Positions 6,529-63,401 of a stretch of DNA of 64,000 bases are shown here, in pieces. Under the pieces are notes generated by a model that was not told where the DNA came from, made no database searches, and worked only from the letters and a program-made list of their open reading frames with translations. The position numbers and the translations under genes were made by a program. The DNA is taken from assembly GCA_963813155.1 (NCBI GenBank), contig CAWEYG010000003.1:769866-833865 (forward strand), read 5' to 3'. This DNA comes from an uncultured Acidobacteriota bacterium (GTDB taxonomy: Bacteria > Acidobacteriota > Thermoanaerobaculia > UBA5066 > DATFVB01). Position 1 is the stretch's first letter. Each line of letters begins with the position of its first letter.

Positions 6529-6649
6529 GACGACGAGCAGCGATGCAGCCGACGATCTTCGCGAGCTTCAACATTCCGACCTCCTCGAGAGTCGGGCGAT
6601 TCTAGAGGCTGGAATCCCCTCGAATCGGACGCGATACCATCGCTCGAGG

Positions 6650-6868
6650 ATGCAGGGCCTTCCGACACTCCCCTCCGCCCCGGCCGAACGCGATCCCGTC
6701 TGCGGAATGACGCCGAAACCGGACACGCCCCACCGAGCGACGTTCGAGGAGCGGGAATACCTCTTCTGTTCCGCCGGCTGCCGCGCAAAATTCGACGCCG
6801 ATCCGCGCAAGTATCTTGCAGCCGTTCCTTCGCCCGCCGGGCCTGCACCGCTTCCCCCTCTCGCTTGA
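6650..6868 (+). CDS. YHS/TRASH-domain metal-binding protein (start uncertain)
   Basis: Motif DPVCGM...[12 protein letters not shown] typical of YHS domains that precede heavy-metal P-type ATPases; internal ATG at 6650 chosen over the track start 6431. Confidence 0.5.
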
Positions 6869-6911
6869 GGGAGAGGGGACGCGAGAGGCGGCGACGGAGT
6901 GGGGCTGTCCC

Positions 6912-10111: not shown

Positions 10112-11026
10112 TCACAAGAGCGAAACCGATGCCATCGCAGCCGGAACGCGCACGCGAATCGCGCCCGGAACGACCCAGAAGCTCACCGGAAACGAGGGCT
10201 TCCGGATCTCGCCGTCCGCGTGCGCAAACAGAGGACGGTCGGAGCCCAGCGTGAACCCTTTTCCACGGAAGAACCTCGCCTTCGGATGGCTCCGGTGCGC
10301 GCCGAAGAGCGCCTTCGGAAGGTTCGCGAGCGTTTCGAGCTTGCCGAGATCCCCGATCACGCACGCGTCGAGCGCTCCGTCGGACGGGGAAGCGTCCGGC
10401 GTGAGGAGAAACCCGCCGCCGCACGACGGTCCGTTGCCCACCGCGCAGAGGAGAGCCTTCCCTTCCCAGGACCCGAAATCCCCCTCGAGTCTCAGGACGG
10501 GCTTCTCGTAGGTCGCGATCGTCGCGACGGCGGCCGCGAGGTACGCGGGCAGCCCGCGCAATCTTCGAAACTCCTTCGACTTCGCGGCTGCCGCCCCGTC
10601 CAGCCCGACGCCGACGCCGCTGAAGAAGAATTCGCCGTCCATCGCGCCGAGGTCGAGAGTCTTTTCTTCGCCATCGATTGCGAGATCGGCCGCCGGGCCG
10701 AACTTCCGCGGCGAGCCGATCGTCCTCGCGGCGTCGTTTCCGCCTCCCGCGGGAACGAAACAGAGGACTCCCCGGCCCGGCGCCGCCCCCATCGCCTGCA
10801 CGATCTCGTGGACGGTGCCGTCGCCGCCGACCGCCACGACGACGCCGTCCCGCTCGGCCTCGATGAATTCGCGCGCCAGCTCCGTCGCGTGGCCGGGCGC
10901 AGCGGTCCGAAAAATCTCGAACGAGGCGCCGCGCTCCCGCAGGCGCGACTGGACGCTCGCGAGAATTCGCGGCTCACGGCCGTTGCCGGCGGCCGGATTC
11001 CCGATGACGCGGATCGGAGAGGACAG
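10112..11026 (-). CDS. Diacylglycerol/lipid kinase catalytic-domain protein (YegS/DAGK_cat family); non-canonical start
   Basis: Domain motifs VAVGGDGTV, GNDAART. The frame stays open upstream of the track's GTG (10837) through ...DLSSPIRVIGNPAAGNG, with no ATG/GTG/TTG; CTG at 11024-11026 would give a textbook N-terminus, MSSPIRVIGNPAAGNG. Confidence 0.65.
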   Translation of the reverse strand: MSSPIRVIGNPAAGNGREPRILASVQSRLRERGASFEIFRTAAPGHATELAREFIEAERDGVVVAVGGDGTVHEIVQAMGAAPGRGVLCFVPAGGGNDAARTIGSPRKFGPAADLAIDGEEKTLDLGAMDGEFFFSGVGVGLDGAAAAKSKEFRRLRGLPAYLAAAVATIATYEKPVLRLEGDFGSWEGKALLCAVGNGPSCGGGFLLTPDASPSDGALDACVIGDLGKLETLANLPKALFGAHRSHPKARFFRGKGFTLGSDRPLFAHADGEIRKPSFPVSFWVVPGAIRVRVPAAMASVSLL

Positions 11027-11052
11027 ATCGATTCTTCGGTTATCCTTCGGCG

Positions 11053-11568
11053 ATGATTCTGAAGGTTTCGAAGCTCGGCGTCAAAGTTCTGCGCGAAAAG
11101 GCGGCCGACGTCGACCCGAAAGACGTGCGGCAGGGCAAGTACGAGCCGTTCCTCGAGCACATGCTCGACACGATGCGGGAATACGACGGGACCGGCCTGG
11201 CGGCCCCGCAGGTCTTCGCGGGAGTGCGCGTGTTCGTGTACGAAGTCGTTCCCGAACGCCGGAACAAGAAGGAGAAGGCCGTTCCGCTGACGGCGCTCTT
11301 CAACGCCCGCTACGAACCGGTCGGCGACGAAATCGAGGTCGATTCGGAGGGTTGCCTCTCCGTCCCGTTCCTTTGGGGAGACGAGGTCCCGCGATGGAAG
11401 ACGATCCGCGTCCGCGCTCTCGACCGCGGCGGAAAGGCGGTCGCGTTCGAGGCGGAAGGCTTTCACGCGCGGGTCCTGCAGCACGAGATCGACCACCTCG
11501 ACGGGATCGTCTACCTGGACCGGATGAAAGACCTCCGGAGCCTCGGCTACACCGTAAAGTTTGGGTAA
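11053..11568 (+). CDS. def: Peptide deformylase
   Basis: GLAAPQ, EGCLS and HEIDHL motifs; 171 aa. Confidence 0.9.
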   Translation: MILKVSKLGVKVLREKAADVDPKDVRQGKYEPFLEHMLDTMREYDGTGLAAPQVFAGVRVFVYEVVPERRNKKEKAVPLTALFNARYEPVGDEIEVDSEGCLSVPFLWGDEVPRWKTIRVRALDRGGKAVAFEAEGFHARVLQHEIDHLDGIVYLDRMKDLRSLGYTVKFG

Positions 11569-11576
11569 GTCGAGCT

Positions 11577-11592
11577 TGTGAAGCGTTTCACA
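11577..11592. promoter_or_regulatory. CRP/FNR-family-like palindrome TGTGA-N6-TCACA upstream of nuoB
   Basis: Exact TGTGAagcgttTCACA at 11577-11592 in the 53-nt def-nuoB gap, ~30-45 nt upstream of the nuoB start. Confidence 0.35.
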
Positions 11593-11621
11593 TTCCCGTT
11601 TCGCTCTGATAGATTTTGAGC

Positions 11622-12164
11622 ATGGCGAGCTCGCGCCCCCTCGACACGATGCCGTCCGGCTCTGCCGACTTCTTCACGACGCGGCTCGACAACCTCGTCG
11701 CGTGGGCGCGCAAGAACTCCCTGTGGCCGCTCCCCTTCGGGACGGCGTGTTGCGCGATCGAATACATGTCGATCGTCTCCTCGCATTACGACCTCTCCCG
11801 GTTCGGCGCGGAGGTCGTGCGGTTTTCTCCCCGGCAGGCCGATCTTCTGATCGTTGCGGGAACGGTCGTCGACAAACTCGCTCCCGTGCTCCGCAAGATC
11901 TACGACCAGATGCCGGAGCCGAAATGGGTGATCTCGATGGGCGTCTGCGCCTCGTCGGGAGGGTTTTACCGGGCGTACCACGTCGTCCAGGGCATCGACG
12001 AGATCGTTCCGGTCGACGTTTACGTCCCCGGCTGCCCTCCGACGCCGGAAGAGCTGATGTACGGGATCATCCGGCTCCAGGAAGCGATCCAGTCGGGAAA
12101 GAAGTCCCGCGACGGCCGCTCGGCGCGCTACGCGGCGAGCCTTCCCGCGATCCAGGCGCCGTGA
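11622..12164 (+). CDS. nuoB: NADH-quinone oxidoreductase subunit B
   Basis: CCAIEYM and GVCASSGG / CPP Fe-S ligands. ATG at 11622 (track TTG at 11616). No nuoA upstream; def is the upstream neighbour. Confidence 0.9.
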
Positions 12165-13890
12165 GCGACACGGCCGTCTCTTCCCTGTCGGCGCCCGCCG
12201 AACGGATCCGGCGGAAAATCGCGGAGAAATTCCCCGATTCGAAAGTCTCCGTCGCAGACCTCGACCTGCCCACCGTCGAGACCGACCCTTCGAGCTGGCC
12301 CGCGGTCGCCCGCTTCCTGCGCGACGACCCGGAGCTGCGGTTCGATCTTCTGCTGGATCTCGCGGGAGTCGACAATCTCCAGCGCCGGGGCCGGCCGAGC
12401 CGGTTCGAAGCCGTCGTCGCACTTTTACTCCACTGTTCGCGACGAGCACGTTCGCGCGAAGGTCATCCTGGACTCCGACAAACCGGGCCTGCCGTCCGTC
12501 GTCGACGTCTGGCCCGCGGCGAACTGGTTCGAGCGCGAGGCCTTCGACCTTTTCGGTTTCGATTTTCCCGGGCATCCGAGGCTGCGTCGCCTGCCTGTGC
12601 CACGAGGCGTTCGTCGGCCACGCGCTCCGCAAAGACTACGCCGCCGGCCAGCGCTGGATGTGCACGGACGACGACCTCTACGTGCCGTCGCTCGTCGAGC
12701 GGGAGAACGAGGAGCAGGACCAGTTCGAGACGGTCGTCGTCAACCTCGGGCCGTCGCATCCCGCGACGCACGGGACGCTCCGGATCGTCGCGCGCCTCGA
12801 CGGGGAGCAGATCCTCGAGGCCGAGTCGGAGATCGGCTACCTGCACCGCTGCTTCGAGAAAATGTCGGAGACGCACACCTGGAACCAGGTCATCCCGTAC
12901 ACGGACCGCCTGAACTACTGCTCGTCGTTCCTCAACAACGTCGCCTACTGCAAGACGGTGGAGCGGATGCTCGGGATCGAGGTGCCGGAGCGCGGCGCGC
13001 TCATCCGCACGATCCTCTCCGAGTTCTCGCGGGTGATGGACCACTGCGTGTGCATCGGCGCGAACCTCGTCGACACGGGAGCGCTCACGAACTTCTGGTA
13101 TCTCTTCCAGTGCCGCGAGGAGATCTACTCGCTGATCGAGGCCTGCTGCGGGGCACGCCTGACCGTCTCCTACGGACGGATCGGCGGCCTCTCGCGCGAC
13201 GTGCCGGAGGACTTCGTCGAGCGGTGCAAGTCGCTGCTGAAGTCGATTCCGCCGTTCCTGAACGACGTGGACGGGCTCATCAAGAAGAATCGGATCGTGT
13301 GGAACCGTTTTCACGGCGTCGGCGTCGTCTCCCGCGAGCAGGCGATCGCCTGGGGATTCACCGGCCCGTGCCTGCGCGCTTCCGGAGTCGGGTACGACGT
13401 GAGGAAGTCCCGTCCGTACGATTTCTACGACCGCTTCGACTGGGACGTGCCGGTGCACCGCGACGGCGACAACTATGCCCGCTACCTCGTCCGCATGGAG
13501 GAGATGCGGCAGTCCCTTTCGATCATCCGCCAGGCGCTCGAGGTGTTTCCGAAGTCCGGGCCCGTCGACGCCGCCGACTGGCACGTCGTGCTCCCGCCGA
13601 AGAACAACGTGTACCACGACATGGAATCGCTCATCTATCACTTCAAATGGGTGATGGAGGGGATCCAGGTGCCGGAAGGCGAACGGTACGAATGGTTCGA
13701 AGGGGGCAACGGGGAGCTCGGCTTCTACATCGTGTCGACGGGAGGCGGATCGCCCTACCGCGTCAAGGTCCGGCCGCCCTGCTTTCCCCTGATGGCCGCC
13801 TTCGAAAAGATCATCGCGGGCAGCCGCATTTCGGACGCCGTCGCGACGCTCGGGACGCTGAACATCATCGCCGGGGAACTGGACAGATGA
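12161..13890 (+). CDS. nuoCD: Fused NADH-quinone oxidoreductase subunit C/D (nuoCD); NuoC portion interrupted by two apparent +1 frameshifts
   Basis: GTG at 12161 overlaps the nuoB stop (GTGA). NuoC N-terminus reads in frame 2 to ~12418; the conserved NuoC core ([18 protein letters not shown]...[18 protein letters not shown]) reads in frame 0; ...[12 protein letters not shown] runs in frame 1 straight into intact NuoD (12658-13890; [16 protein letters not shown]...). Confidence 0.7.
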
Positions 13891-14529
13891 GCGCGAAGGT
13901 CGTCGACATCACCGACCGCGAGCCGCGCTCGCCGTCTTTCGCCGCGCGCCTCTATCTCCCCGAGATCTTCAAGGGGATGCTCGTCACGATCGGGCATTTC
14001 CTGCGCAACATCGTCGCGATCGGCAAGCTCCCGACGATCCTCTACCCCGAACAGAAGCGGAACTATTCCGAAAGGTTTCGCGGCAAGCACATCCTGAAGA
14101 CCCGCGAGGACGGGACGCTCAAGTGCGTCGCCTGCTACATGTGCGCGCAGGCGTGCCCGGCGGACTGCATCCAGATCGTCGCCGGCGAGCACCCGAAGAT
14201 CGCCTACGAGAAATATCCGGTCGTCTTCAACATCGACATGCTGCGCTGCGTCATGTGCGGTTTCTGCGTGGACGCCTGTCCCGAAGGACGCGATCTGGAT
14301 GAGCCGCGACTACGAGCTCTCGTTTTTCACGCGGCACGAATCGGTCTTCGACATCTCCCGGCTCGTCGAAAAGCCGGGCGCCCCCGTCAAAGACGGGTAC
14401 GGATACCGGCCGTACTACCCCGGCGACGGCACCGTGCCCCCGACCGACGCTTCGACCGCCCCCGTCGTTCCCGGCGACGGAGGACGAAAGGAGCTCCGCG
14501 AGAAGGGGCTGCTGCCGGTCCACTCCTGA
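13887..14529 (+). CDS. nuoI: NADH-quinone oxidoreductase subunit I (2x[4Fe-4S]); apparent +1 frameshift near 14290
   Basis: ATG 13887 overlaps the nuoD stop (ATGA). First ferredoxin motif CYMCAQACPADC and second CGFCVDACPEG in frame 0; the C-terminus (AIWMSRDYELSFFTRHE...) continues in frame 1 to TGA 14527-14529. An extra base near ggAcgcg (~14291) would explain it. Confidence 0.7.
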
Positions 14530-16637
14530 CGCGCCGCCGGCAAATCTTTCTTTTTCTTGCGCTCTGGTGGCTCGCTCTCGGCGCGGTCAACCTCGCGTGG
14601 CTCTCGAAAAACACCCGTCCCCCGTCGTGGGATCCCTTCAACCATCTCTTTTCCGGCGCGAAGTACCACAACCTCGTCGCGGATCTGCTCGAGGGGAACG
14701 CGACCGTCCGGGCGACGGCCCGATCGCTGCTGCGCGTCGACGACCACTATCCGCCGCTGGCGCCCCTCGCGGCGGGACCGGCGTTCGGAGGCGCCGATCC
14801 CCGGAGCCCGACGCTCTTCCTGAACCAGGCCGCGCTCGCGCTGCTGATCGGCGCGACCTACGCGATGGGAAAAAGATATTCCTCGGAGGCGACCGGGATC
14901 CTCGCCGCGATCGCCGTGTCGTCGTTTCCGATCGTCTCGATGCAATCGAGGATGTTCATGCTCGATCTGCCCGATGCGGCGATGACCGCGCTCGCCCTGC
15001 TTGCGCTCTGCCGCGCCGACGCCTTTCGCCGCGCCGCACCTTCGTTGGTCTTCGGAGCGACGCTCGGGCTGGCTCTTCTCACGAAATGGACGGTCGTCTT
15101 TTTCCTCGCCGCGCCCCTCGCCTTCGAGTTGCTTCGAGCCGCGAGGTCGTCCGAGCGCGGCCGGCGTCTGGGAAACGCGGGCGCGGGTCTCCTTCTCGCG
15201 GCCGCGATCCCCCTCCCGTGGTACTCGGCGCACCTGTGGAACATCCTCCGCGATTCAGCGAAATTTTCGTACGACGTCGGAGTACGCGAAGGCGATCCGC
15301 CGGTCTTCACCGCGAAATCGCTGTTCTTTTACGCCTCGTCGCTTCCGGCGGCCGTCCTCGCGCCCTGGGCCTTTCTCTTTGTCGGGGGTCTTGCGCTCGC
15401 GGCTCGGGACCGTTTCCGCCGGGGCCGGTTGATGTTCTTTGCGATCCTGGGCGGCTGGGCGATCCTGACCCTGATCCGGAACAAGGATTCCCGCTACGTG
15501 ATCCCCATGCTGCCCGTCATTGCGGTCGTCGCCGCGTCCGCGCTCGACGCTTTCCGAGTCCGGTTCCGCTGGAAGGCCGCCGCCGCGGGCTTGCTCGCCG
15601 CGATCTCGCTCGGCGCGGCCTGGCGGACGGACCCTCCGGTTCGCGAGAATTGGCCCATTCACGAAGCGGTCGAGTTTCTCCGGCGCCAGCCGGTTTCACG
15701 GCCCCGGCTTCGGGTCGTCCCGGACTGGCCGTATTTCGAGAGGCATGGCTTCGAGTACGCCGCGGAAGAAGCGCGCTTTCCGCTCGACGTCGGCATGTGG
15801 TTTCATTTCCCCGCTTTCACCGACTTCGTGATCACGAAGAGCGGCGACCAGGGAGAGCGCCCGGAGCCGAAGGAGATCATGCGCGAGGTCGAAGATCCCC
15901 GGAGCGACTTCCGGTCTCTTTTCCAACCCGTCTGGGAACACCCGCTCCCCGACGGAGGCGTCGCACGGATCTACGCCCGGCACGTCGCGCCGGCTCCGGC
16001 CGAGCCGGACGAGATCGTTCGCCGACTTCGATCGGCCGCGGCCGACCTCGTCGCCGCCTACTTCCGCGACGTCGAGGGACTGGAAATCGATGTCGACCCG
16101 TACTCCGACGGCGAGACCCGGAGCGGGCGGTTCCGGCGGATCGACATCCGCATTTCCACCGCTGCGATCCGCGGGAAAAAACCCGGTTCACCCGCGCTCG
16201 CGCTTCGAAACGTCCGACTGGAAGTGTCCGACGTCGTCGTCAATCCGTATCGCCTCCTTCGCGACGGAACGATCGAAGTCCTGAGCCTTCGCGAGGCGGC
16301 GCCCTCCGTCGAGCTGCGGGAAGAAGACGCGAGCGAGTATCTCGCCTCGCTTCTTCGCGGCCCGAGCCACGTGCGATTCTCCTCCGGAACGATCTCGATC
16401 GAAGCGCATCCGCGCGGGCGGATCCCGGCGATCTCGCTCTCCCTCGAGCCGCGAATCGTCGCGGGCGAGAACATCGGATTCCACGTGACGCGATTTCGCG
16501 TCGGCGATCTACCGATCCCGGCGGCGATCGCCGGAATGTTGACCGCGGGAAACGACCCGATCCTCAAACCGATGCCGTGCCGCGTGCGACTCGATCGCTT
16601 GAGCATCGAGGGCGGGGTCCTGGCCCTCAACGAATAG
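14526..16637 (+). CDS. GT-C fold membrane glycosyltransferase (ArnT/PMT/GT39-GT83-like) with ~270-aa C-terminal soluble domain; probable CTG start
   Basis: About 12 predicted TM helices. No ATG/GTG/TTG between the nuoI stop and the first TM helix; CTG at 14526-14528 overlaps the nuoI TGA (CTGA) and would give MTRRRQIFLFLALWWLALGAV. Confidence 0.6.
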   Translation: MTRRRQIFLFLALWWLALGAVNLAWLSKNTRPPSWDPFNHLFSGAKYHNLVADLLEGNATVRATARSLLRVDDHYPPLAPLAAGPAFGGADPRSPTLFLNQAALALLIGATYAMGKRYSSEATGILAAIAVSSFPIVSMQSRMFMLDLPDAAMTALALLALCRADAFRRAAPSLVFGATLGLALLTKWTVVFFLAAPLAFELLRAARSSERGRRLGNAGAGLLLAAAIPLPWYSAHLWNILRDSAKFSYDVGVREGDPPVFTAKSLFFYASSLPAAVLAPWAFLFVGGLALAARDRFRRGRLMFFAILGGWAILTLIRNKDSRYVIPMLPVIAVVAASALDAFRVRFRWKAAAAGLLAAISLGAAWRTDPPVRENWPIHEAVEFLRRQPVSRPRLRVVPDWPYFERHGFEYAAEEARFPLDVGMWFHFPAFTDFVITKSGDQGERPEPKEIMREVEDPRSDFRSLFQPVWEHPLPDGGVARIYARHVAPAPAEPDEIVRRLRSAAADLVAAYFRDVEGLEIDVDPYSDGETRSGRFRRIDIRISTAAIRGKKPGSPALALRNVRLEVSDVVVNPYRLLRDGTIEVLSLREAAPSVELREEDASEYLASLLRGPSHVRFSSGTISIEAHPRGRIPAISLSLEPRIVAGENIGFHVTRFRVGDLPIPAAIAGMLTAGNDPILKPMPCRVRLDRLSIEGGVLALNE

Positions 16638-16656
16638 CGCGGGCTCGCGGTCCGAG

Positions 16657-17743
16657 CTACCGGACCCGGACCTTCAGCGCGAGGCCGAAGTCCGCTCGGT
16701 CGCCGAAAGCGGGGACGTTTTCCGTCAGGGTGACGCCCGCGGCGACGCGCGATGGAAAGATCGCGGTCCACGCCGAGCGCGATCTCGAACCCGGTATGCG
16801 AGAGGTCTCCGAGCCCGTCCCGGCGGAAAGGGCTCTGCTCGTACGTCGCGGAAGCGCCGATCCTCGTGCTCGCGCCAAACGAGCGCGTCGCCCCGACGAG
16901 AGCCCGCGCGAACCACGCGACCGGGAGCCCCGTTTCGCTGCGCCATTTTCCCGGGAAGACGACGCCCGCTTCGCCATCGAGCGTCCATCGCGGACCGTCG
17001 CGCCGGGCGAACGCGAGAGCGCCCGCGTCCCACGATCCCGAACCGTTGAAATTCCTGGCGCTTCCCGTCGGGGCCTTGACGGCCGCGTCGGCGCCGTAGG
17101 ACCACCGCGAACCGCCGCCCGGTCGCCACGACAGCGTCGCCGTCGCGTCGCCGAGACCCGATTCCGGCGGGCGGTCGTCGAAGGTCATCGCGCCGTTCGG
17201 CCTTTGGATGACGACGTCGAAGGAATCGGCGGGAAACTCGTCGCGGCCCGACTGCGGGAGGCCGAACGCCCGATGAAACGCCTCGACCGCGGAACCTCCG
17301 CGGATCGCGTCGTGCGACACGTAAACGAGCTCGAGGGAGACCGAGAAACACCGGGAAAGCCCCGCTCGGCCGGTCAGGCCCGCGCGAAACAAATCGCTCT
17401 CGAGAAAGAACACCCGGTCTCCTGGAAAATCCCGATGGATCATTTCGGCCTCGGCGCTCGTGAACGGCGTTCCGGCGAGACCGAGGTTCTTGTGGTAGCT
17501 CAGCGCGTGCCAGGTCGAGGAGAACGTGCTCGCGTACGCGGTTTCGAGCGTCCAGTTCACCGCTCCCGGTTCGGGGCTCGCCGCGTCGGCAGGGCCAAAA
17601 TCGAGAAACGGGACGTGGAGGACATGAAGGCTTCGTTCGCCGAAAACGGGCGGAGAGTTACTCTGGGACGGCGCTCCGCGGACAGGCAACCGCGGGGGCA
17701 GACCATCACTGCGCGAAAAACGCTCCAGTCGCCGAAGTCGCAA
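16657..17743 (-). CDS. Hypothetical beta-rich protein (possible outer-membrane beta-barrel); 3' end and frame uncertain
   Basis: Track ORF 16058-17743 has alternating hydrophobic/polar, Gly/Ser/Thr-rich barrel-like composition, but its last ~190 codons overlap the convergent GT-C gene. A second frame (ORF 16657-16977) ends ...ADFGLALKVRVR*, consistent with a 1-nt indel near 16745. Confidence 0.3.
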
Positions 17744-17814
17744 ACGACTTGAAATCTATCGCATTTCGACGACGACCTTGACGCCGCGAGACGCCCCTGT
17801 ATAATCTCCGGCGG

Positions 17815-19514
17815 TTGTCCACCCGCCGAACGATCCCGCGCAAACAGGGAGTACTCGTCCACAGGTCCGTCCGCAGCGCGGCTTTTTCGATTTTCGCGCT
17901 CCTGCTGGCGCCGACGACGAGACTCTTCGCCGCCTCGTACTTCATGATCTCCGACGAGTCCCTGGCCCGGCGGAGCCCCGTCGTCGTGCGCGCGACCGCG
18001 CTCGCGTCGAGAGTTCTTCCGGCGGGCGGTTTCCACACGGAGACCCGCACGACCTTCTCCGTCGAAGAGGTCGTCCGCGGAACCGCCGGGCGGTCGATCG
18101 ACGTCGCGCTGCCGGGAGGAAACCTGCCCTCCGGCGCCGGATCGTACGCCTGGATGCCGGAATTCCGGGCCGGCAGCGACTACGTCCTCTTTCTCGCGCG
18201 CCGATCCGACGGCGTCTACGGCGTCGTGGAGCTGGAGCTCGGGATCTTCGAGGTCCAATACGACGCGGCCGGCGCCGCGTTCGCCGTTCGCCCGCGTTTC
18301 CCGTCGAGCGCCGCGCCGTCGCGATCGCTCGACTCGGCCGGCGGCCTCCCCGCGGAGCGTCCCGCGGGAGCTGCGCGCGTTCCTCTCGATGATCGCTGGA
18401 CCGACTTCCCCCGTTTCGGGAAAGCCGCCCGCCGGACGCCTGCAGTCCGTCCCGGTGTCGGGGACGGGCGGACAGATCCGGCCGATGTGGAACAACCTCG
18501 GCAGCGTTCTCGCGCGCTGGCCCACGAACGCGCCGATCTCCGCCGGCTACGTCGACGACGACACGACCGACGGCGGCACGGGTCCGCAGGCCAACCTCAC
18601 CGGAGGCGGAGGAGGTTTGCCCCAGCTCCAGAACGCCGTTTCCCACTGGAACGACGACTCCTCGAGCAGCATCAACATCTCGTTCTCGGCCGGGTCGAAA
18701 TCGGTCACGATTCACACCGACAACGTCTCGGAGTTCTCCGGAGGAACGGGAATTCCGTGCGATCTCGGCGTCGTCGGCCTCACGATCGTCTCGTGGAGCT
18801 CCGCGAATCAGACCTTCAAGAGACGAGAGCTATCGAACGCTGCTCGGGGCCGACGTCTACCTTCGCCGTTGGGATTGCCTGACGAGCACCTACCTGCCGA
18901 GCGCTTTCGAGAATGTCGCGACGCACGAGCTCGGCCATGCCCTCGGCCTCGATCATCCCGACCAGGCGACGAGCCCGCACGACCACACGCCGAACGACGT
19001 TGCGGACGCCGTCATGATCTCGACCGGCAGCTACACCCGCCACACCGGCCTCGGCAGCGACGACGTCGAGGGAATTTGCTGGCTGTACGGAGCCTGTACG
19101 GACACCGTCGCGCCTCCTCCCCCGCCACCGCCCCCACCGCCACCGCCTCCCCCGCCGCCTCCGCCTCCGACGAGCGGCTGCCAGGCGGGCGCGAACACAT
19201 TGTGCCTGCAGGGTGCCCGCTTCCGCGTGAGCGTCGCGTGGCAGGCCTTGAACGAGGGCACGAGCGGAAACGGCATCGCGATCCCGCTGACGGGAGACAC
19301 GGGCGCATTCTGGTTCTTCGATCCGAGCAACCTCGAGCTCACCGTCAAGGTTCTCGACGGCCGCCCGATCAACAAACACTTCTGGGTGTTCTACGGCGCG
19401 CTGTCGAACGTGCAGTACACGATCACCGTCACCGACACGCAGACCGGAGCGATCCGGAAGTACACGAACCCGCAAAATACGATGGCAAGCGTGGGAGACG
19501 TAGCCGCCTTCTAG
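17815..19514 (+). CDS. Secreted metzincin-type zinc metalloprotease with 20-proline linker and beta-rich C-terminal domain; two apparent +1 frameshifts
   Basis: Signal peptide at N-terminus (frame 1); middle region in frame 2 (18389-~18820); HELGHALGLDH (HExxHxxGxxH) plus Met-turn AVM in frame 0, followed by PPPPPPPPPPPPPPPPPPPP (19095-19154) and a ~115-aa domain ending ...SVGDVAAF*. Confidence 0.5.
19095..19154 (+). repeat. Low-complexity CCN repeat encoding a 20-residue polyproline linker
   Basis: cctcctcccccgccaccgcccccaccgccaccgcctcccccgccgcctccgcctccg, in frame with the metalloprotease catalytic domain. Confidence 0.8.
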
Positions 19515-20647
19515 CGTCCGGAAGCCTCCGGGGGTGACGCTGCCGCGAGCGCACAAGCGACAGCTTCGACTTCTTCCGGGGTCAACTCCGGGTAGCACGG
19601 GATCGAGACCACTTCTCCCGCGACCCGTTCGGAGACCGGCAGCGCGCCCTCCGGGAATTGCGGGTCGGCGAAGGCGGGTTCCAGATGCGCCGGGTTTGGA
19701 TAGTGAACGTCGGTCTCGACGCCAAGGTCCGCGAGCCGGGCGCGAACGCGCTCCCGTTCGAGGGTCCGGATCACGAAGAGGTGGTACACGTGCTCCCGCT
19801 CGGGAGACTCGAAAGGAGCAACGAGACGGGTGCCTGCCAGCGCCTTCCTGTACCGGTCCGCGATCGCGCGCCTCGCCCGATTCCAACCCTCGAGGCGCGG
19901 CAACTTCACGCGCAGAATCGCGGCCTGAACTTCGTCGAGGCGGCTGTTCGCTCCGCCGGGAAGGACGGCGTGAAAACGGCTCTCCCACCCGTATTCCCTC
20001 AGCTGTCGGACGCGGAGCGCGAGATCTTCGTCGTTGGTCACGACGATGCCTCCGTCGCCTGCCGCCCCGAGGTTCTTCGTCGGGTAGAAGCTGAAACAGC
20101 CCGCGGCCGCGAGGCTGCCGACCGGTCTCCCCCGATATCGCGCCCCGTGGGCCTGGGAGCAGTCTTCGATGACGGGCAAACCGCGCCGTCCCGCGATCTC
20201 GAGAATTTCGTCCATTTCGGCAGGAAGGCCGTAGAGATGCACGACGAGAACGGCAGACGCCGCGGCCGTGATTCCCCGCGCCAGGGACCCGGGGTCCATC
20301 GTTTGCGAGAGAACATCGACATCGACGTAGACCGGTCGCGCTCCGGCGAGGCGGATCGCGGCCGGCCCGGGTACACCGGCGTTGGCCACCGTGACGACGT
20401 CGCTGCCCGCCTTCACTCCGGAAGCGAGGAGCGCCAGGCGGATCGCGTCCGTGCCGCTGCCGACCCCGACGCCGTGCGCGGCGCCGCACAGACTCGAGAA
20501 TTCGTTTTCGAACGCTTTCGTCTGGGGTCCGAGGATGTACCGACCCCGTTCGAGGGCCCCGGACACGGCCTCCCGGAGCTCCGGCTCGATGGACCGGAAC
20601 TGGCGCGCCAGATCACCGAACGGAACGCGAATCGGCGCGTCTACCAG
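19511..20647 (-). CDS. DegT/DnrJ/EryC1/StrS-family PLP-dependent sugar aminotransferase (ArnB/WecE-like); non-canonical start
   Basis: Sugar-aminotransferase family layout and typical family length (~380 aa), e.g. PFGDLARQF...GVGSGTDAIRLAL...HLYG...FYPTKNLGAAGDGG. No ATG/GTG/TTG in the ~60 nt (20 codons) upstream of the domain start, and every upstream candidate lies inside the epimerase gene; CTG at 20645-20647 overlaps the epimerase stop and gives MVDAPIRVPF. Confidence 0.75.
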   Translation of the reverse strand: MVDAPIRVPFGDLARQFRSIEPELREAVSGALERGRYILGPQTKAFENEFSSLCGAAHGVGVGSGTDAIRLALLASGVKAGSDVVTVANAGVPGPAAIRLAGARPVYVDVDVLSQTMDPGSLARGITAAASAVLVVHLYGLPAEMDEILEIAGRRGLPVIEDCSQAHGARYRGRPVGSLAAAGCFSFYPTKNLGAAGDGGIVVTNDEDLALRVRQLREYGWESRFHAVLPGGANSRLDEVQAAILRVKLPRLEGWNRARRAIADRYRKALAGTRLVAPFESPEREHVYHLFVIRTLERERVRARLADLGVETDVHYPNPAHLEPAFADPQFPEGALPVSERVAGEVVSIPCYPELTPEEVEAVACALAAASPPEASGR

Positions 20648-21645
20648 TACCGCTCCCGATTCTTCCGGAAGAATTCGACCGTTCGCGCGAGACCTTCGCG
20701 AAGAGCGACGCGGGGCCGCCAGCCGAGCTCGACTTCGATTCGTTGGAACGAGCTGTAGACGTCGCCCACGTCGAGGGCCTTCTTTTCCGGAGGCCACGGC
20801 ACGAGGCGGTAGCTTCCCGAGCCCGCGAGCTCGATCAGGAGGTCGAGCAACTGGCGGTGCTCGGTCGGCTCCAACCCCCCCAGGTTGTAGATCCGGCCGT
20901 TGCTCCGCTCGTCGGCGGCGGCGAGGAGGAAGGCGTCGACGACATCGTCCACGTAGTTGTAGTCGCGCATCTGGGTGCCGTCGCCGAAGATCTCGACTTC
21001 TCCTCCTTCGACGACGAGCCGGACGAACCAGCCGAGCGCCGTTTGGCGACTGTGCTTGACGAGCATTCCCGGGCCGTACGTATTGGTCAGGCGAAGCGAA
21101 CAGGCGCGAATTCCGTACACGTCGTTGTAAAGGATGTGATACCGCTCGCCCGCCATCTTGTTGATGCCATTGACGTCCACCGGCCGAACCGGGTGCGCTT
21201 CGTCGATCGGGAGATAGCTCGGCCGGCCGTAGATCTGCCTTGTGCCGGCAAAAACGATCTTCGCGTCCCGATTGAACTTTCGGCAGGCTTCGAGGATCGA
21301 CACCTGCGCCCGGCAGTTGATGTCGAGGTCCGTGAAAGGATCCTCCATCGAATCCCAATGGCTGACCTGGCCCGCGAGATTGAAAATGAAATCGCGATCC
21401 TGCACGAGATACTGCATCGAGTGCCCGTCGCGGACGTCGGCAAAATTCACGCGGACCCGGTCTTGAATCCCTTCGATGTTGTGGAGATTGCCCCCGTATT
21501 CCGGAATCATGCTGTCGACGAGGACGACGTCCGCACCGGAGGCCGCGAGCGCGCGAGCGAGGTGGCTACCGATGAACCCCAGGCCTCCCGTGACGAGGCA
21601 TCTCTTCCCGGAAAAGAAATCTCGCGAGCGAGGAGAATCAGTCAA
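20641..21645 (-). CDS. NAD-dependent epimerase/dehydratase (extended SDR; UDP-sugar 4-epimerase/decarboxylase-like)
   Basis: GGLGFIGSHL Rossmann motif and YxxxK catalytic residues; 334 aa. Confidence 0.85.
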   Translation of the reverse strand: MTDSPRSRDFFSGKRCLVTGGLGFIGSHLARALAASGADVVLVDSMIPEYGGNLHNIEGIQDRVRVNFADVRDGHSMQYLVQDRDFIFNLAGQVSHWDSMEDPFTDLDINCRAQVSILEACRKFNRDAKIVFAGTRQIYGRPSYLPIDEAHPVRPVDVNGINKMAGERYHILYNDVYGIRACSLRLTNTYGPGMLVKHSRQTALGWFVRLVVEGGEVEIFGDGTQMRDYNYVDDVVDAFLLAAADERSNGRIYNLGGLEPTEHRQLLDLLIELAGSGSYRLVPWPPEKKALDVGDVYSSFQRIEVELGWRPRVALREGLARTVEFFRKNRERYW

Positions 21646-33144: not shown

Positions 33145-34997
33145 CTAAGAGCTGATCGCGTCCAGGCGATCGACGATGCGGCGCGCGCTCGCGTCCCACG
33201 TCCATTTCGCCGCGACTTCGAGGGCCGCGGCCTGCCCTCGAAGGCGTGCGGCGTCGCGATTCTCGTACACCTCGCGAAGGAGGGCCCGCAGGTGGTCCGG
33301 GTCCGGGTCGGCCCAGCGAAATCCTTCGTAGTAGGGGCACTTCGCTTCCGCGGGTATCGTGCCGCGCACACGGAGAGGGTAGGAAATCTGCTCGTGGACG
33401 AACTCGCGGTGCGCGCCCCAGTCCGTCGCGATCGTCGGAAGCCCGCAGGCCATCGCCTCCATGAGGGGCATGTCCCACCCCTCCCCGCGGCCGGCGGAGA
33501 CGTAGCAGTCCGCGGATCGGTAGAAGCTCGCGAGCTGGGCGTAGGGAAACTCGAGGTTCAGCAGGAACGCGGTGCGGCCTCCGGACTTCTTCAGCTCCAG
33601 CTTCCGGATCTCCTCCCGGACGGCGACGCTCGGGTCGCGATTGATGATCTTGCACACGAGCCGGACCGGCTCGCTCGCCTTGAACTCGTCGTTGAACGTC
33701 TTGAGGAGCAGCCCGGGCGCTTTCCGCTCGCCCCATTCGAAGTTCGTCGCGAACACGAACTCCCCGAGCGGGTTCTCGTGGCGGCGAACCCCGGGATGAA
33801 AGTAGTTCGTGTCGATGCCGAGCGGGATCTTGTGGATCGGGCGTTTCAGTCCGGACGCGAGAAATCCCTCGCGGTTGAATTCGGTCGGAACCCAGACCTC
33901 GTCCATGAGGTTGGCCTGGCGGACCCACTCGCGCGGAAACCCGTCGACCTCCAGCATCGTGAAGCCGATCTTCTGCCGGCCCCGATTCGACCGGAACACG
34001 TCGCCCTGGCCGTAGACGACGGAGACCCGCGGGCGAAGTGCCCGTCCGCCCGCTCCCGGATGACGTTCATCAGGTAGTCGCCGGTGTTCTCCGGCTCGTC
34101 GACCGGAAATGGCGTTCCGCGGCCGTAGACGTATTCGTAGGCCGCTCGCACGCCCAGTCCTTCGAGGGCTCGCAGGATTTCGCGGGAGCTGATCGCGTAT
34201 CCCGTGGAGAAGTTCAGGATCGATTGCCAGAGGACATTGTGGCGATACCGGCCATTCAGATGGGAGCGCCAGTTCTTGCGAAAGATCTCCCGGCTCGCCT
34301 GGAACAGGCTGCTGAAATGCTCGTCCGAACCGGAGGTGGACCCGTGCTCGTCGTGCACGAGCGTGACCCCGCCGCACACGACGACTTTGAACCCGGCACG
34401 GCGGGCGCGAAGGCAGTAGTCCGTGTCTTCGAAGTACGACTCGAAGTCCTCCGAGAGGGCTCCGATCGCCGCGATCGCCTCTCTCTTCAAAAGCGCGCAC
34501 GCGAAGACGACGCCCTCGACTTCGCGGCTCGAGGTGTATTGCCCGATGTCGCGTTCCCCCGATCCGATCTGCTGGCCCCACATCGTCTCGGGAACCATGA
34601 ACGTGCCGGCGTGGAGCAGCGACCCGTCGGGCCTCGTCAAACGGCAGCCCACGACGCCGATCACGGGAGAGGAATGGGCGCAGGCACGCATCCGCGACAG
34701 CCAGTCTTCCTGGAAAAACTCCAGATCGTTGTTCAGCAGGACGATGTCCGACCCCGGATCGGCCTCTCGAATTCCGACGTTGTTGCCCCTCACGTAGCCG
34801 AGGTTTCGATCGTTCCGGATGACTCGGACCCAGGCGTATTCTTCGAGCCGGCGGGGAGTCTCGTCCGTCGAACCGTTGTCGACGACGATCACCTCCGCGT
34901 CGGACAGGTCCGTTCGCCGCAGGGAGTCCAGGCACTTCTTGGTCAGGTTCCAGCGGTTCCAGGCCAGAACGATGAGGGTCGCTTTTCGCGCGGTCAT
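33145..34997 (-). CDS. Probable bifunctional GT2-GT4 glycosyltransferase; reading frame changes near 34040
   Basis: GT2 domain (VVDNGSTD, DTDYCLRA) from ATG 34997. Same frame continues into a GT4-like N-terminal Rossmann segment; GT4 C-domain (EX7E region ...GEGWDMPLMEAMACGLP...) is in another frame to stop 33145. Confidence 0.5.
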
Positions 34998-61684: not shown

Positions 61685-63401
61685 TCATTTCACGCGAACC
61701 CGGATGACGAGCGGGTTCGCCCCCTGATCCGAAAACCACGACACAAACTCCTGGACGAGATCGAAGTGAAGCTCGAAGTCACCGGCGAGATCCGGCGGCG
61801 TGATGTCGATCGGAAGAGTCGTCCATTGCCCCGGCAGGAGGGGTTCGCTCAGGTCCGCGCGCGGCGAATCGTCGGGAAGGGGTTCGGAGGAGTTGACCTT
61901 GAACCATCGACATCCCAACCGCACGGCGCGGACCGCATCGGGGATCCCCGATATCGAGGGCCGGGGACCGAGCCAGGAGACCGGGCTCGCGTTTTGGAAG
62001 CGAACCGTCGCCTCGAAGGGCTTGCGCTCGATCACCGGCGGTACATGGACCTCTCCCCACCGGACCCTGTAGCCGTCGGGCGGGAGAGCATTCGGCCGAG
62101 CCGTGAATCCCGCGACGTTCGAGCGCGCAAGGAGATCCTCCCGCATCTCCAGATGATGCCAGTCCCATGCATGGGCCTCCAGCGGGAGTCCCATCCTCGC
62201 TTCCCAGTTCGACGAACCGTAGGCGAGACCTCCTTCGATCTGGATGAGGATCGACAGAAGCGCCAATACGCCGGTCACGATCAGGTGTGGCCGTCTCATC
62301 CGCCTCAATGCCAGAATCGAGGTGAGCGCGAGCACGGGCAGTATCTCGATCAGGTAGCGCGGCCCGAAACTCCAGCCGCCGGCCCAGCGGGCAAACGAAC
62401 AGTGGACGAGCGCGTAGGCGATCGCCGCCGCAGAAAAGGTCGCCAGAAGAGGCCGGGCCTTCGCCTGGCGGAAGGCAATCCCCATTCCCGCCAGGCCCAC
62501 GACCGCCACCGGCGTGTAGAAGAGGAGTCCGCGATTCGGGCTGAAAAACAGGCCGAGAATGCCGAGCGGAGCGTTGCGCAGAGCGATGTGCGTGGCGCCG
62601 TGAACGGTTCCCCCCATGGGATTGTCGAAGTAGTAGAGGTTGTAGAAGAGAAACGGCGCCGCGGCGGCGATCGCGCCCGCTCCGTAGGCCAGCGGCGCCC
62701 TCCATCCCCGTCTGCGCCGTATCCCTTTCAGAAGCAAATAGGCGAACCCGGCGGCCGCGAAAATCGCCGCCGCCGGCCGGATGCCGTACAGAAAATCCGA
62801 GAAAGACGCCGGCCAAAGCTCCTGAGCGAACCGTCCCGCCCGGCCGAGAGAGGCAGAACAATCCGAGGAGCAGGAACAGCACGTCCGGGCCGTGCTGCCA
62901 GAGCTCCTGGCTCGCCACCGCCCACATCGAGGTGCCCAGACCGAATACGAGAGCGACGCCGAGTGCGCGGTACGGGCCCGCCCAGGGAACGAGCATCCGG
63001 AAGAGCACCAGTACCGCCGCGGCGCAGATGATCCCGGCGCTCCAGATCTCGGCCGTGGCGGCCACATCGAAGAGATTCCGGGGGGAAGTTCGTTTCTGCA
63101 GCGAAAGAACGGCGTAGATGGGGAGGTCGACGGGAAGCGCGGCGATCGCCGCGCCGATGGGATAGTGGGACATCAGATGCCCGCGCCGGTTCTCGAGATA
63201 GCCGACCTCCCGCGTGTCGCGCGAGAATTCTGCCGAGAACGAGTCCAACGTCACTCGATGGTCACGAAGAATCGCGAAAGGAAGGACCCGCGTACCGAGC
63301 GTGTCCCAGCCTTCCGCAACACTCGACACGTCGGCCGTCGAGACGTAGGCAGCGAGGCAAACGAAGAAGATTGCCACGCCCGAAAGAAAGGGTCGAGTCA
63401 C
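61685..63401 (-). CDS. Membrane GT-C-like protein fused to a C-terminal FDLVQExVAWF domain; apparent 1-nt insertion near 62800
   Basis: N-terminal ~200 codons (MTRPFLSGVAIFFVCLAAYV...) in the frame of ORF 61779-63401; remainder in the frame of ORF 61685-63067, ending ...GDFELHFDLVQEFVSWFSDQGANPLVIRVRVK*. Confidence 0.5.

Follow-up and report, generated by a model that had tools for sequence, protein, structure and literature searches.

Conserved near-cognate codons as candidate translation starts of three genes in an uncultured Acidobacteriota lineage

Where does translation begin in a gene that has no ATG, GTG or TTG to begin it? The question is raised by a 64,000-nucleotide (nt) stretch of an uncultured Acidobacteriota genome (class Thermoanaerobaculia, going by homolog names; G+C content, 64%), referred to here as the window, and within it by three genes, which encode a DAGK/YegS lipid kinase, a GT-C glycosyltransferase and a DegT/DnrJ/EryC1 aminotransferase. 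The original prediction had noted that none of the three has a canonical start upstream of its conserved domain and that a CTG stands at the expected initiation position of each; it proposed that the organism initiates at CUG unusually often or that the starts were lost to point errors. The coordinates, strands and translations given for the three CTG codons proved correct when the sequence was reread, and a frame scan bore out the absence itself: from the upstream stop codon or neighboring gene to the conserved N terminus, there is no in-frame ATG, GTG or TTG in any of the three genes. Judging from sequence comparison, we put at roughly 70% the probability that the three genes are intact and translated, their canonical starts having been replaced clade-wide by near-cognate codons.

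A CTG near a start means little when taken alone, since CTG accounts for 3.3% of the in-frame codons in the window (ATC for 4.2%), and other near-cognate codons lie close by (ATC at 11032, 11014 and 11005 for the DAGK gene, ATC at 14544 for the GT-C gene, and ATT at 20632 and 20674 for the DegT gene). What is beyond chance is the combination of canonical-start absence with conservation in relatives. An alignment of orthologous 5′ ends, which the original prediction had named as a check, showed that the start-less state recurs in independent related assemblies. The DNA of relatives came from one related genome (L001 and L004; ENA ERZ26871208, a 946,771-bp contig), two Logan (SRA) contigs (L003 and L005), an ENA farmland contig (L033), an ENA forest contig (L032), three JGI contigs (L002, L007 and L009), and an NCBI Thermoanaerobaculia metagenome-assembled genome (MAG), GCA_050747885.1 (L006, on the same contig as L011). 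A metagenome scan for the DAGK gene returned four loci. For the GT-C gene, a contig scan with the single protein gave no match and an alignment-based scan gave one close relative, the contig of L006, the remaining matches being at most 39% identical and of no use for start columns. The absence of any canonical in-frame codon was checked and found again in L003, L009, L005, L001 and L002.

The GT-C gene (14526-16637, plus strand; 703 amino acids from the CTG, with Pfam matches to PMT_2, Glyco_transf_22 and LmeA) offers the simplest configuration. Its CTG at 14526-14528 overlaps the nuoI stop codon (TGA, 14527-14529) as CTGA and is followed by TRRRQIFLFLALWW. In this frame, the nearest upstream canonical codons lie at least 86 codons back, within nuoI, and the first one downstream lies only past +69 (at about +113, by reading). 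The pentanucleotide CTGAC is kept in all five clade genomes (the window, L005, L033, L001 and L006; 83% to 63% amino acid identity), with CTG in the GT-C frame and TGA closing nuoI, while the last nuoI codon varies (TCC, TCC, AAC, ATC and TCC) with C always as its third base. In the four genomes checked, no canonical codon occurs from at least 63 codons upstream to +16, +44, +65 or about +113, so that the first downstream candidate sits at a different place in each. In L005, whose frame is closed by a stop at -63 and has a TTG at +65, CTG is the sole near-cognate codon between -12 and +65. Outgroup orthologs begin within one residue of the CTG column, with GTG in P0251 (VTRRSLL) and with an ATG inside P0252 (MTRRHLI); the outgroup L032 has a TTG start a few residues further upstream, 19 nt past nuoI. 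Codons +1 to +43 show ratios of non-synonymous to synonymous changes (pN/pS) of 0.16 to 0.46 against four relatives, and the start-less stretch holds a conserved hydrophobic N-terminal segment, read as the first transmembrane segment (TM1), as well as a WDP.NHL motif. The CTG is thus the likely GT-C start. Since no Shine-Dalgarno (SD) motif lies within range of it (the nearest, AAGGGG, is 17 nt off), initiation would depend on the stop/start overlap, the CUG of CUGA being used through translational coupling (termination-reinitiation) with nuoI.

The DAGK/YegS gene (Pfam DAGK_cat and YegS_C) lies on the minus strand, where its frame is closed upstream by a TGA at 11083 and where the first canonical codon, GTG at 10837, comes 63 codons down, beyond the GNPAAGNG loop. 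The CTG singled out by the original prediction (11024-11026), read as Leu or Met and followed by SSPIRVIGNPAAGNG, is well placed with regard to distant homologs: position 2 of the DAGK_cat profile falls four codons past it, distant orthologs start with M/V-x-x-PIRV exactly at its column, and the outgroups L007 and L032 have ATG at or near the aligned start position. In the closer relatives, the column reads CCG (L003, 93% identity), CCG (L009), CAG (L033) and CCT (L004). The ATC two codons upstream (11030-11032), from which the coding sequence would span 10112-11032 and encode 306 amino acids, is kept in four of five genomes (the window, L003, L009 and L033). It directly follows an invariant 17-nt sequence, CGAAGGATAACCGAAGA, and the codons next to it vary. 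The 20-nt spacer between def and the DAGK gene also contains an SD-like AAGGA (11043-11047, minus strand), invariant in five relatives, with a spacing of 10 nt to the ATC and of 16 nt to the CTG. No ATG, GTG or TTG occurs in any frame of the start stretch in the window, L003, L009 or L033. The proline at +3 is retained across the closest relatives through synonymous change, and codons +3 to +62 have a pN/pS of 0.19 to 0.41. Because the ATC is conserved, the CTG column drifts in the closest relatives and AAGGA is better spaced from the former, the ATC at 11032-11030 is more likely than the CTG to be the DAGK start, and the CTG in the window seems to be a former start codon that is drifting. A promoter-like TTGACG-N17-CAGAAT (11084-11056, minus strand) lies within the first def codons, and the leader it predicts is about 17 nt long; in this short conserved leader, AAGGA would serve initiation at the AUC two codons upstream of the CUG.

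At the DegT gene (19511-20647, minus strand; Pfam PF01041), two near-cognate codons compete. The CTG at 20645-20647, followed by VDAPIRVPFGDL, overlaps the TAG of the upstream epimerase gene (20641-20643) as CTGGTAG, an arrangement kept in the window, L001 and L002, and an SD-like GGGAG (20653-20657) stands 5 nt before it, inside the C-terminal codons of the epimerase. Five codons further on lies an ATT (20630-20632; MRVPFGDL), conserved in three of three genomes. The protein would have 378 amino acids from the CTG and 373 from the ATT, and PF01041 profile position 3 falls on residue 20. Canonical codons occur in this frame only at -50, within the epimerase gene, and at +27. Common to the window, L001 (88%) and L002 (73%) are GGGAG-N5-CTG-GTA, three variable codons, and then ATT-CGN-GTN-CCG-TTC. 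As the valine codon preceding PFGDL is GTT, GTG or GTC among these three genomes, it is an ordinary valine rather than a lost start, and the GTG used by the gene caller in L001 is a synonymous variant. Between the ATT and the GTG at +27, there are five synonymous changes to one non-synonymous change against L001 and 10 to three against L002, a TAG nonsense change at +22 being among the three; pN/pS is 0.07 to 0.11. By this measure, the stretch is translated and the annotated GTG start at +27 is wrong.

Which of the two codons is used is less clear. The codons between the CTG and the ATT differ only non-synonymously, which supports the ATT, as does N-terminal length: among the 72 of 120 homologs in which the N-terminal motif could be located, two to five residues usually precede the conserved proline (index 3 in 10 sequences, index 8 in one), and homologs usually start three to five residues nearer PFGDL than the window CTG does. 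On the side of the CTG are its SD spacing and a GGGAG-N5-NTG geometry identical to that at the start column of a metalloprotease gene in the same window. The CTG is a plausible start on this evidence, and DegT would initiate either at the CUG overlapping the epimerase stop, 5 nt downstream of GGGAG, or at the AUU five codons on; going by the aligned sequences, it is non-canonical either way. The in-frame TAG of L002 (L002 106-108, codon +22, GAG in the window) is an oddity in its own right, sitting amid strongly conserved N-terminal codons; an error, a recently acquired nonsense mutation or a moved start in that organism might each explain it.

Taken over all three genes, purifying selection acts on the start-less N-terminal stretches (pN/pS, 0.07 to 0.46), and this bears directly on how the genes have been annotated. 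Database gene calls give DAGK proteins of 239 to 241 amino acids (in four assemblies), DegT proteins of 343 to 363 amino acids (351 in the source annotation, P0001, from the GTG at +27), and GT-C proteins of 552 to 687 amino acids or a 916-amino-acid chimera. If the real starts were the first downstream canonical codons, as in the calls of 241 (DAGK), 351 (DegT) and 552 to 687 (GT-C) amino acids, the similarity upstream of them would be untranslated. The conservation in relatives of the GTG at +63 (DAGK) and of the GTG at +27 (DegT) fits that explanation, as does the position of the L002 nonsense codon ahead of the latter. We nevertheless consider it improbable: the low pN/pS values are accompanied by many synonymous changes in the upstream codons, the GT-C gene has its first canonical codon at an unrelated position in every relative, and starting downstream would cost DAGK its glycine loop and first beta-alpha unit, GT-C its hydrophobic N-terminal segment, and DegT its N-terminal strand and half of helix 1. 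Every database gene call for these three genes is wrong, and because the calls are cut short or merged, protein databases lack, for this clade, the DAGK glycine loop, the GT-C hydrophobic segment and further N-terminal motifs.

The alternative that sequencing or assembly point errors made CTG out of ATG, GTG or TTG deserved attention, given the state of the window. Compared with all available relatives, it has single extra bases in nuoCD (~12415 and ~12593), nuoI (~14279) and the metalloprotease gene (~18360 and ~18823), which are probably assembly errors; at least six indels affect conserved genes, roughly 1e-4 per base. The deposited source contig (1,046,371 bp) carries the same indels, and its gene calls include the NuoI/GT-C chimera (P0241). 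The name of a related contig, "np1212," suggests a long-read assembly in that project. These defects, together with the GTC that the metalloprotease gene has at a start column where relatives have NTG and the ATG or GTG that more distant orthologs have at the DAGK and GT-C positions, are what such errors might leave behind, and it was because of the assembly defects that the hypothesis was tested against independent sequence. No clade relative from Logan, JGI, ENA or the NCBI MAG has a canonical codon at the CTG position, which refutes this half of the original prediction. The same CTG stands in four other genomes for GT-C and in two others for DegT, from separate projects, and in no frame do the closest DAGK relatives have a canonical codon either; the surroundings of the three start sites show no indels against relatives, and three first-base errors all giving C would be very improbable at ~1e-4 per base. 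We therefore give point errors hardly any credence.

The same indels could be taken to mean that in a frameshift-rich genome the three genes have lost their starts and become pseudogenes, several frameshifted genes lying within the same window. The reading frames are otherwise intact and full length, with pN/pS well below 1, and the start-less state extends clade-wide down to 63% to 65% amino acid identity, whereas the frameshifts are private to the window assembly; decay of this kind is accordingly very improbable. Least probable of all is that GT-C and DegT need no start codon because ribosomal frameshifting or read-through fuses each of them to the protein encoded upstream. Both genes do overlap an upstream stop codon, and the source annotation does contain a fused NuoI/GT-C protein, but that chimera arises from the private 1-nt insertion at about 14279. 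There is no slippery heptamer, the sequence ahead of CTGA is different in every relative, and the outgroups have separate genes with gaps of 19 to 36 nt and canonical starts of their own. Moreover, NuoI joined to a membrane glycosyltransferase would appear biologically implausible.

There remains the other half of the original prediction, in its strongest form that all three genes start at CTG and that CUG is a routine start codon in this organism. The CTG coincides with the position at which DAGK and GT-C orthologs start, all five genomes keep it in the GT-C gene and all three in the DegT gene, and a CTG also occupies the metalloprotease start column in L033. Against this stand the CCG, CCG and CAG found in the three closest DAGK relatives, next to a conserved and better-spaced ATC, and a DegT ATT that is conserved as well as the CTG. 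We thus regard a general use of CUG as doubtful. What survives of the claim of unusually frequent CUG initiation is a broader tolerance of near-cognate codons; CTG itself is well supported at GT-C, where all five clade genomes keep it, plausible at DegT and probably wrong at DAGK. A related possibility, on which we are similarly tentative, is that start-codon discrimination is relaxed in the clade, owing, for example, to a change in initiation factor 3 (IF3), initiator tRNA or the 16S P-site. If that were true, any NTG or ATH in an SD-led or stop-overlap context could be a start, several percent of genes might begin at CUG, AUC or AUU, and gene callers would be systematically wrong.

Several observations count against the replacement of canonical starts by near-cognate codons. 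The conservation of the CTG is partly forced by the neighboring genes, at GT-C by the overlapping end of nuoI (its TGA stop and third-position C) and at DegT by the end of the epimerase gene (its TAG stop and a conserved Tyr-Trp-stop). The DegT CTG and ATT are inseparable, SD geometry pointing to the one and N-terminal length and substitutions to the other. L004 has neither ATC nor CTG in its DAGK gene (ACA at the ATC column and a GTG at +6), L006 has a GTG at GT-C +16, and L001 has a GTG at DegT +7, so that other starts may serve in some relatives. The indel errors of the window assembly can by themselves mimic a missing start: in the cytochrome c gene (6540-6590, minus strand), the canonical ATG of GAGGAGG-N5-ATG at 6574 is thrown out of frame with its main open reading frame (ORF) by a gap of 2 nt, at ~6544, in comparison with L004. 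Finally, although clearly in excess of usual bacterial rates, the frequency of about three start-less genes in ~50 (about 6%) comes from a single 64-kb window chosen for this feature.

How start codons are used elsewhere in the window helps to place the three genes. A coding-potential map and Pfam scans covering ~50 ORFs found a canonical codon upstream of the domain in all other Pfam-annotated genes, and the anomaly is therefore specific to these three. In 14 gene families, start columns could be compared, giving ATG (5), GTG (3), TTG (3), CTG (2), ATC (1) and one variable column, that of the metalloprotease, with 11 of the 14 canonical. The variable column (17857-17859, plus strand) reads GTG, GTG, TTG and CTG in relatives, the CTG being that of L033 and led by GGGAG-N5. 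The window has GTC there, neither a canonical nor a near-cognate start, in a gene that also carries two frameshifts. Ahead of it (17778-17859, plus strand) lie a near-consensus sigma-70 promoter, TTGACG-N16-TATAAT (11/12), and GGGAG-N5; an in-frame TTG at 17815 would fall close to the likely transcription start. Canonical overlaps are also present in the window, as GTGA at nuoB/nuoCD and at GT2/GtrA and as ATGA at nuoCD/nuoI.

Other apparent cases were set aside. The nuoC gene was suspected of being start-less and was rejected because it starts, at 12161, in a canonical GTGA overlap. An automated screen was run for homology extending ahead of a gene's first canonical codon; it flagged mostly conserved untranslated DNA, overlapping frames and frameshift artifacts. 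Its flags were dismissed for VWA and GMD, which have canonical starts common to relatives, for GtrA, which has a canonical codon upstream of its Pfam domain, and for cytochrome c, an indel artifact. A heavy-metal P-type ATPase (6711-6900, plus strand) has an uncertain start, though one canonical codon is at hand: the TTG at 6816, the only one, stands 30 codons ahead of the HMBD motif, with the purine-rich GGGAGAGGGGA after it. The stretch from this TTG to the motif is not conserved in L004, where GTG codons directly precede the motif.

Some further features of the window were recorded. The complex I genes at 11616-14529 follow the order nuoB, fused nuoCD and nuoI, with no nuoA, nuoE, nuoF, nuoG or nuoH between, and then the GT-C gene; the order nuoB-nuoCD-nuoI-GT-C is kept in all relatives and outgroups. 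The nuoB start (ATG at 11622; GTG in L001) is preceded by 20 nt that do not vary among relatives, and 6 nt ahead of it ends a promoter-like TTCACA-N17-TAGATT with TG (11587-11624, plus strand); nuoB may be translated from a leaderless mRNA. The def gene (ATG 11053) is also without any SD motif. At 33148-34997 (minus strand), GT2 and GT1 domains lie in different frames, the coding signal changing frame near 34030; since the outgroup L032 has a single 759-amino-acid GT2-GT1 protein, this is probably a further frameshift of the window. Similar frame switches occur near 62800 and within 24 to 26 kb. A scan of the window for tRNA and Rfam elements found none.

Near-cognate initiation is mechanistically possible but weak, as AUA, AUC, AUU and CUG initiate at 1% to 2% of the AUG level in Escherichia coli (Hecht et al., bioRxiv 10.1101/063800). 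We infer that initiator tRNA is recruited at the near-cognate codons described here and that these weak codons hold the output of the envelope and lipid enzymes low. In bacteria, conserved CUG, AUC or AUU starts are considered extremely rare; to have three of them kept across a clade within 10 kb would suggest that envelope and lipid enzymes are deliberately translated at a low level or that the lineage selects its start codons less strictly. A literature search on near-cognate start use in Acidobacteria turned up nothing relevant.

Among known systems, the closest are the near-cognate initiation codons of bacteria (CUG, AUU, AUC and AUA in translation table 11), of which the confirmed cases in E. 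coli are only infC and pcnB, both with AUU (bioRxiv 10.1101/063800). As in those genes, an in-frame near-cognate codon stands here at or near the orthologous start position in an SD or coupling context, and initiation at the three genes is likewise expected to be weak and possibly IF3 sensitive. The differences are that three or four cases fall within 10 kb, are conserved across a clade, and concern ordinary enzyme genes instead of a translation-factor autoregulatory loop. ATG, GTG and TTG make up 99.95% of the starts annotated in model bacterial genomes (bioRxiv 10.1101/063800), and the share of about 6% non-canonical starts in this window is far above the remainder.

Termination-reinitiation at overlapping stop and start codons of the ATGA or GTGA type is established, and most overlapping gene pairs have an intragenic SD motif (Huber et al. 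2019, PMC6728339); that study makes no mention of CTG or other non-canonical restart codons. The GT-C CTGA (a 4-nt overlap) and the DegT CTGGTAG (7 nt, same phase) resemble such pairs in lying on a co-directional upstream stop, DegT has an intragenic SD motif as well, and the GTGA and ATGA pairs of the window share the design; the difference is that the restart codon would be CUG in place of AUG, GUG or UUG. A ribosome-recruiting context, that is, an SD motif at 4 to 10 nt or a stop/start overlap, is found at each gene, as GGGAG-N5-CTG plus overlap at DegT, as AAGGA-N10-ATC at DAGK, and as the CTGA overlap only at GT-C. There is also a parallel in the ordinary turnover among ATG, GTG and TTG, by which columns of fixed position vary, as at nuoB (ATG/GTG), nuoCD (GTG/ATG) and the metalloprotease gene (GTG/TTG/CTG); at the three genes, this turnover would extend to CTG and ATC and then be stable across the clade. 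Near-cognate initiation in coupling or SD contexts is of a known but rarely documented kind, to which these three genes would add clade-conserved examples.

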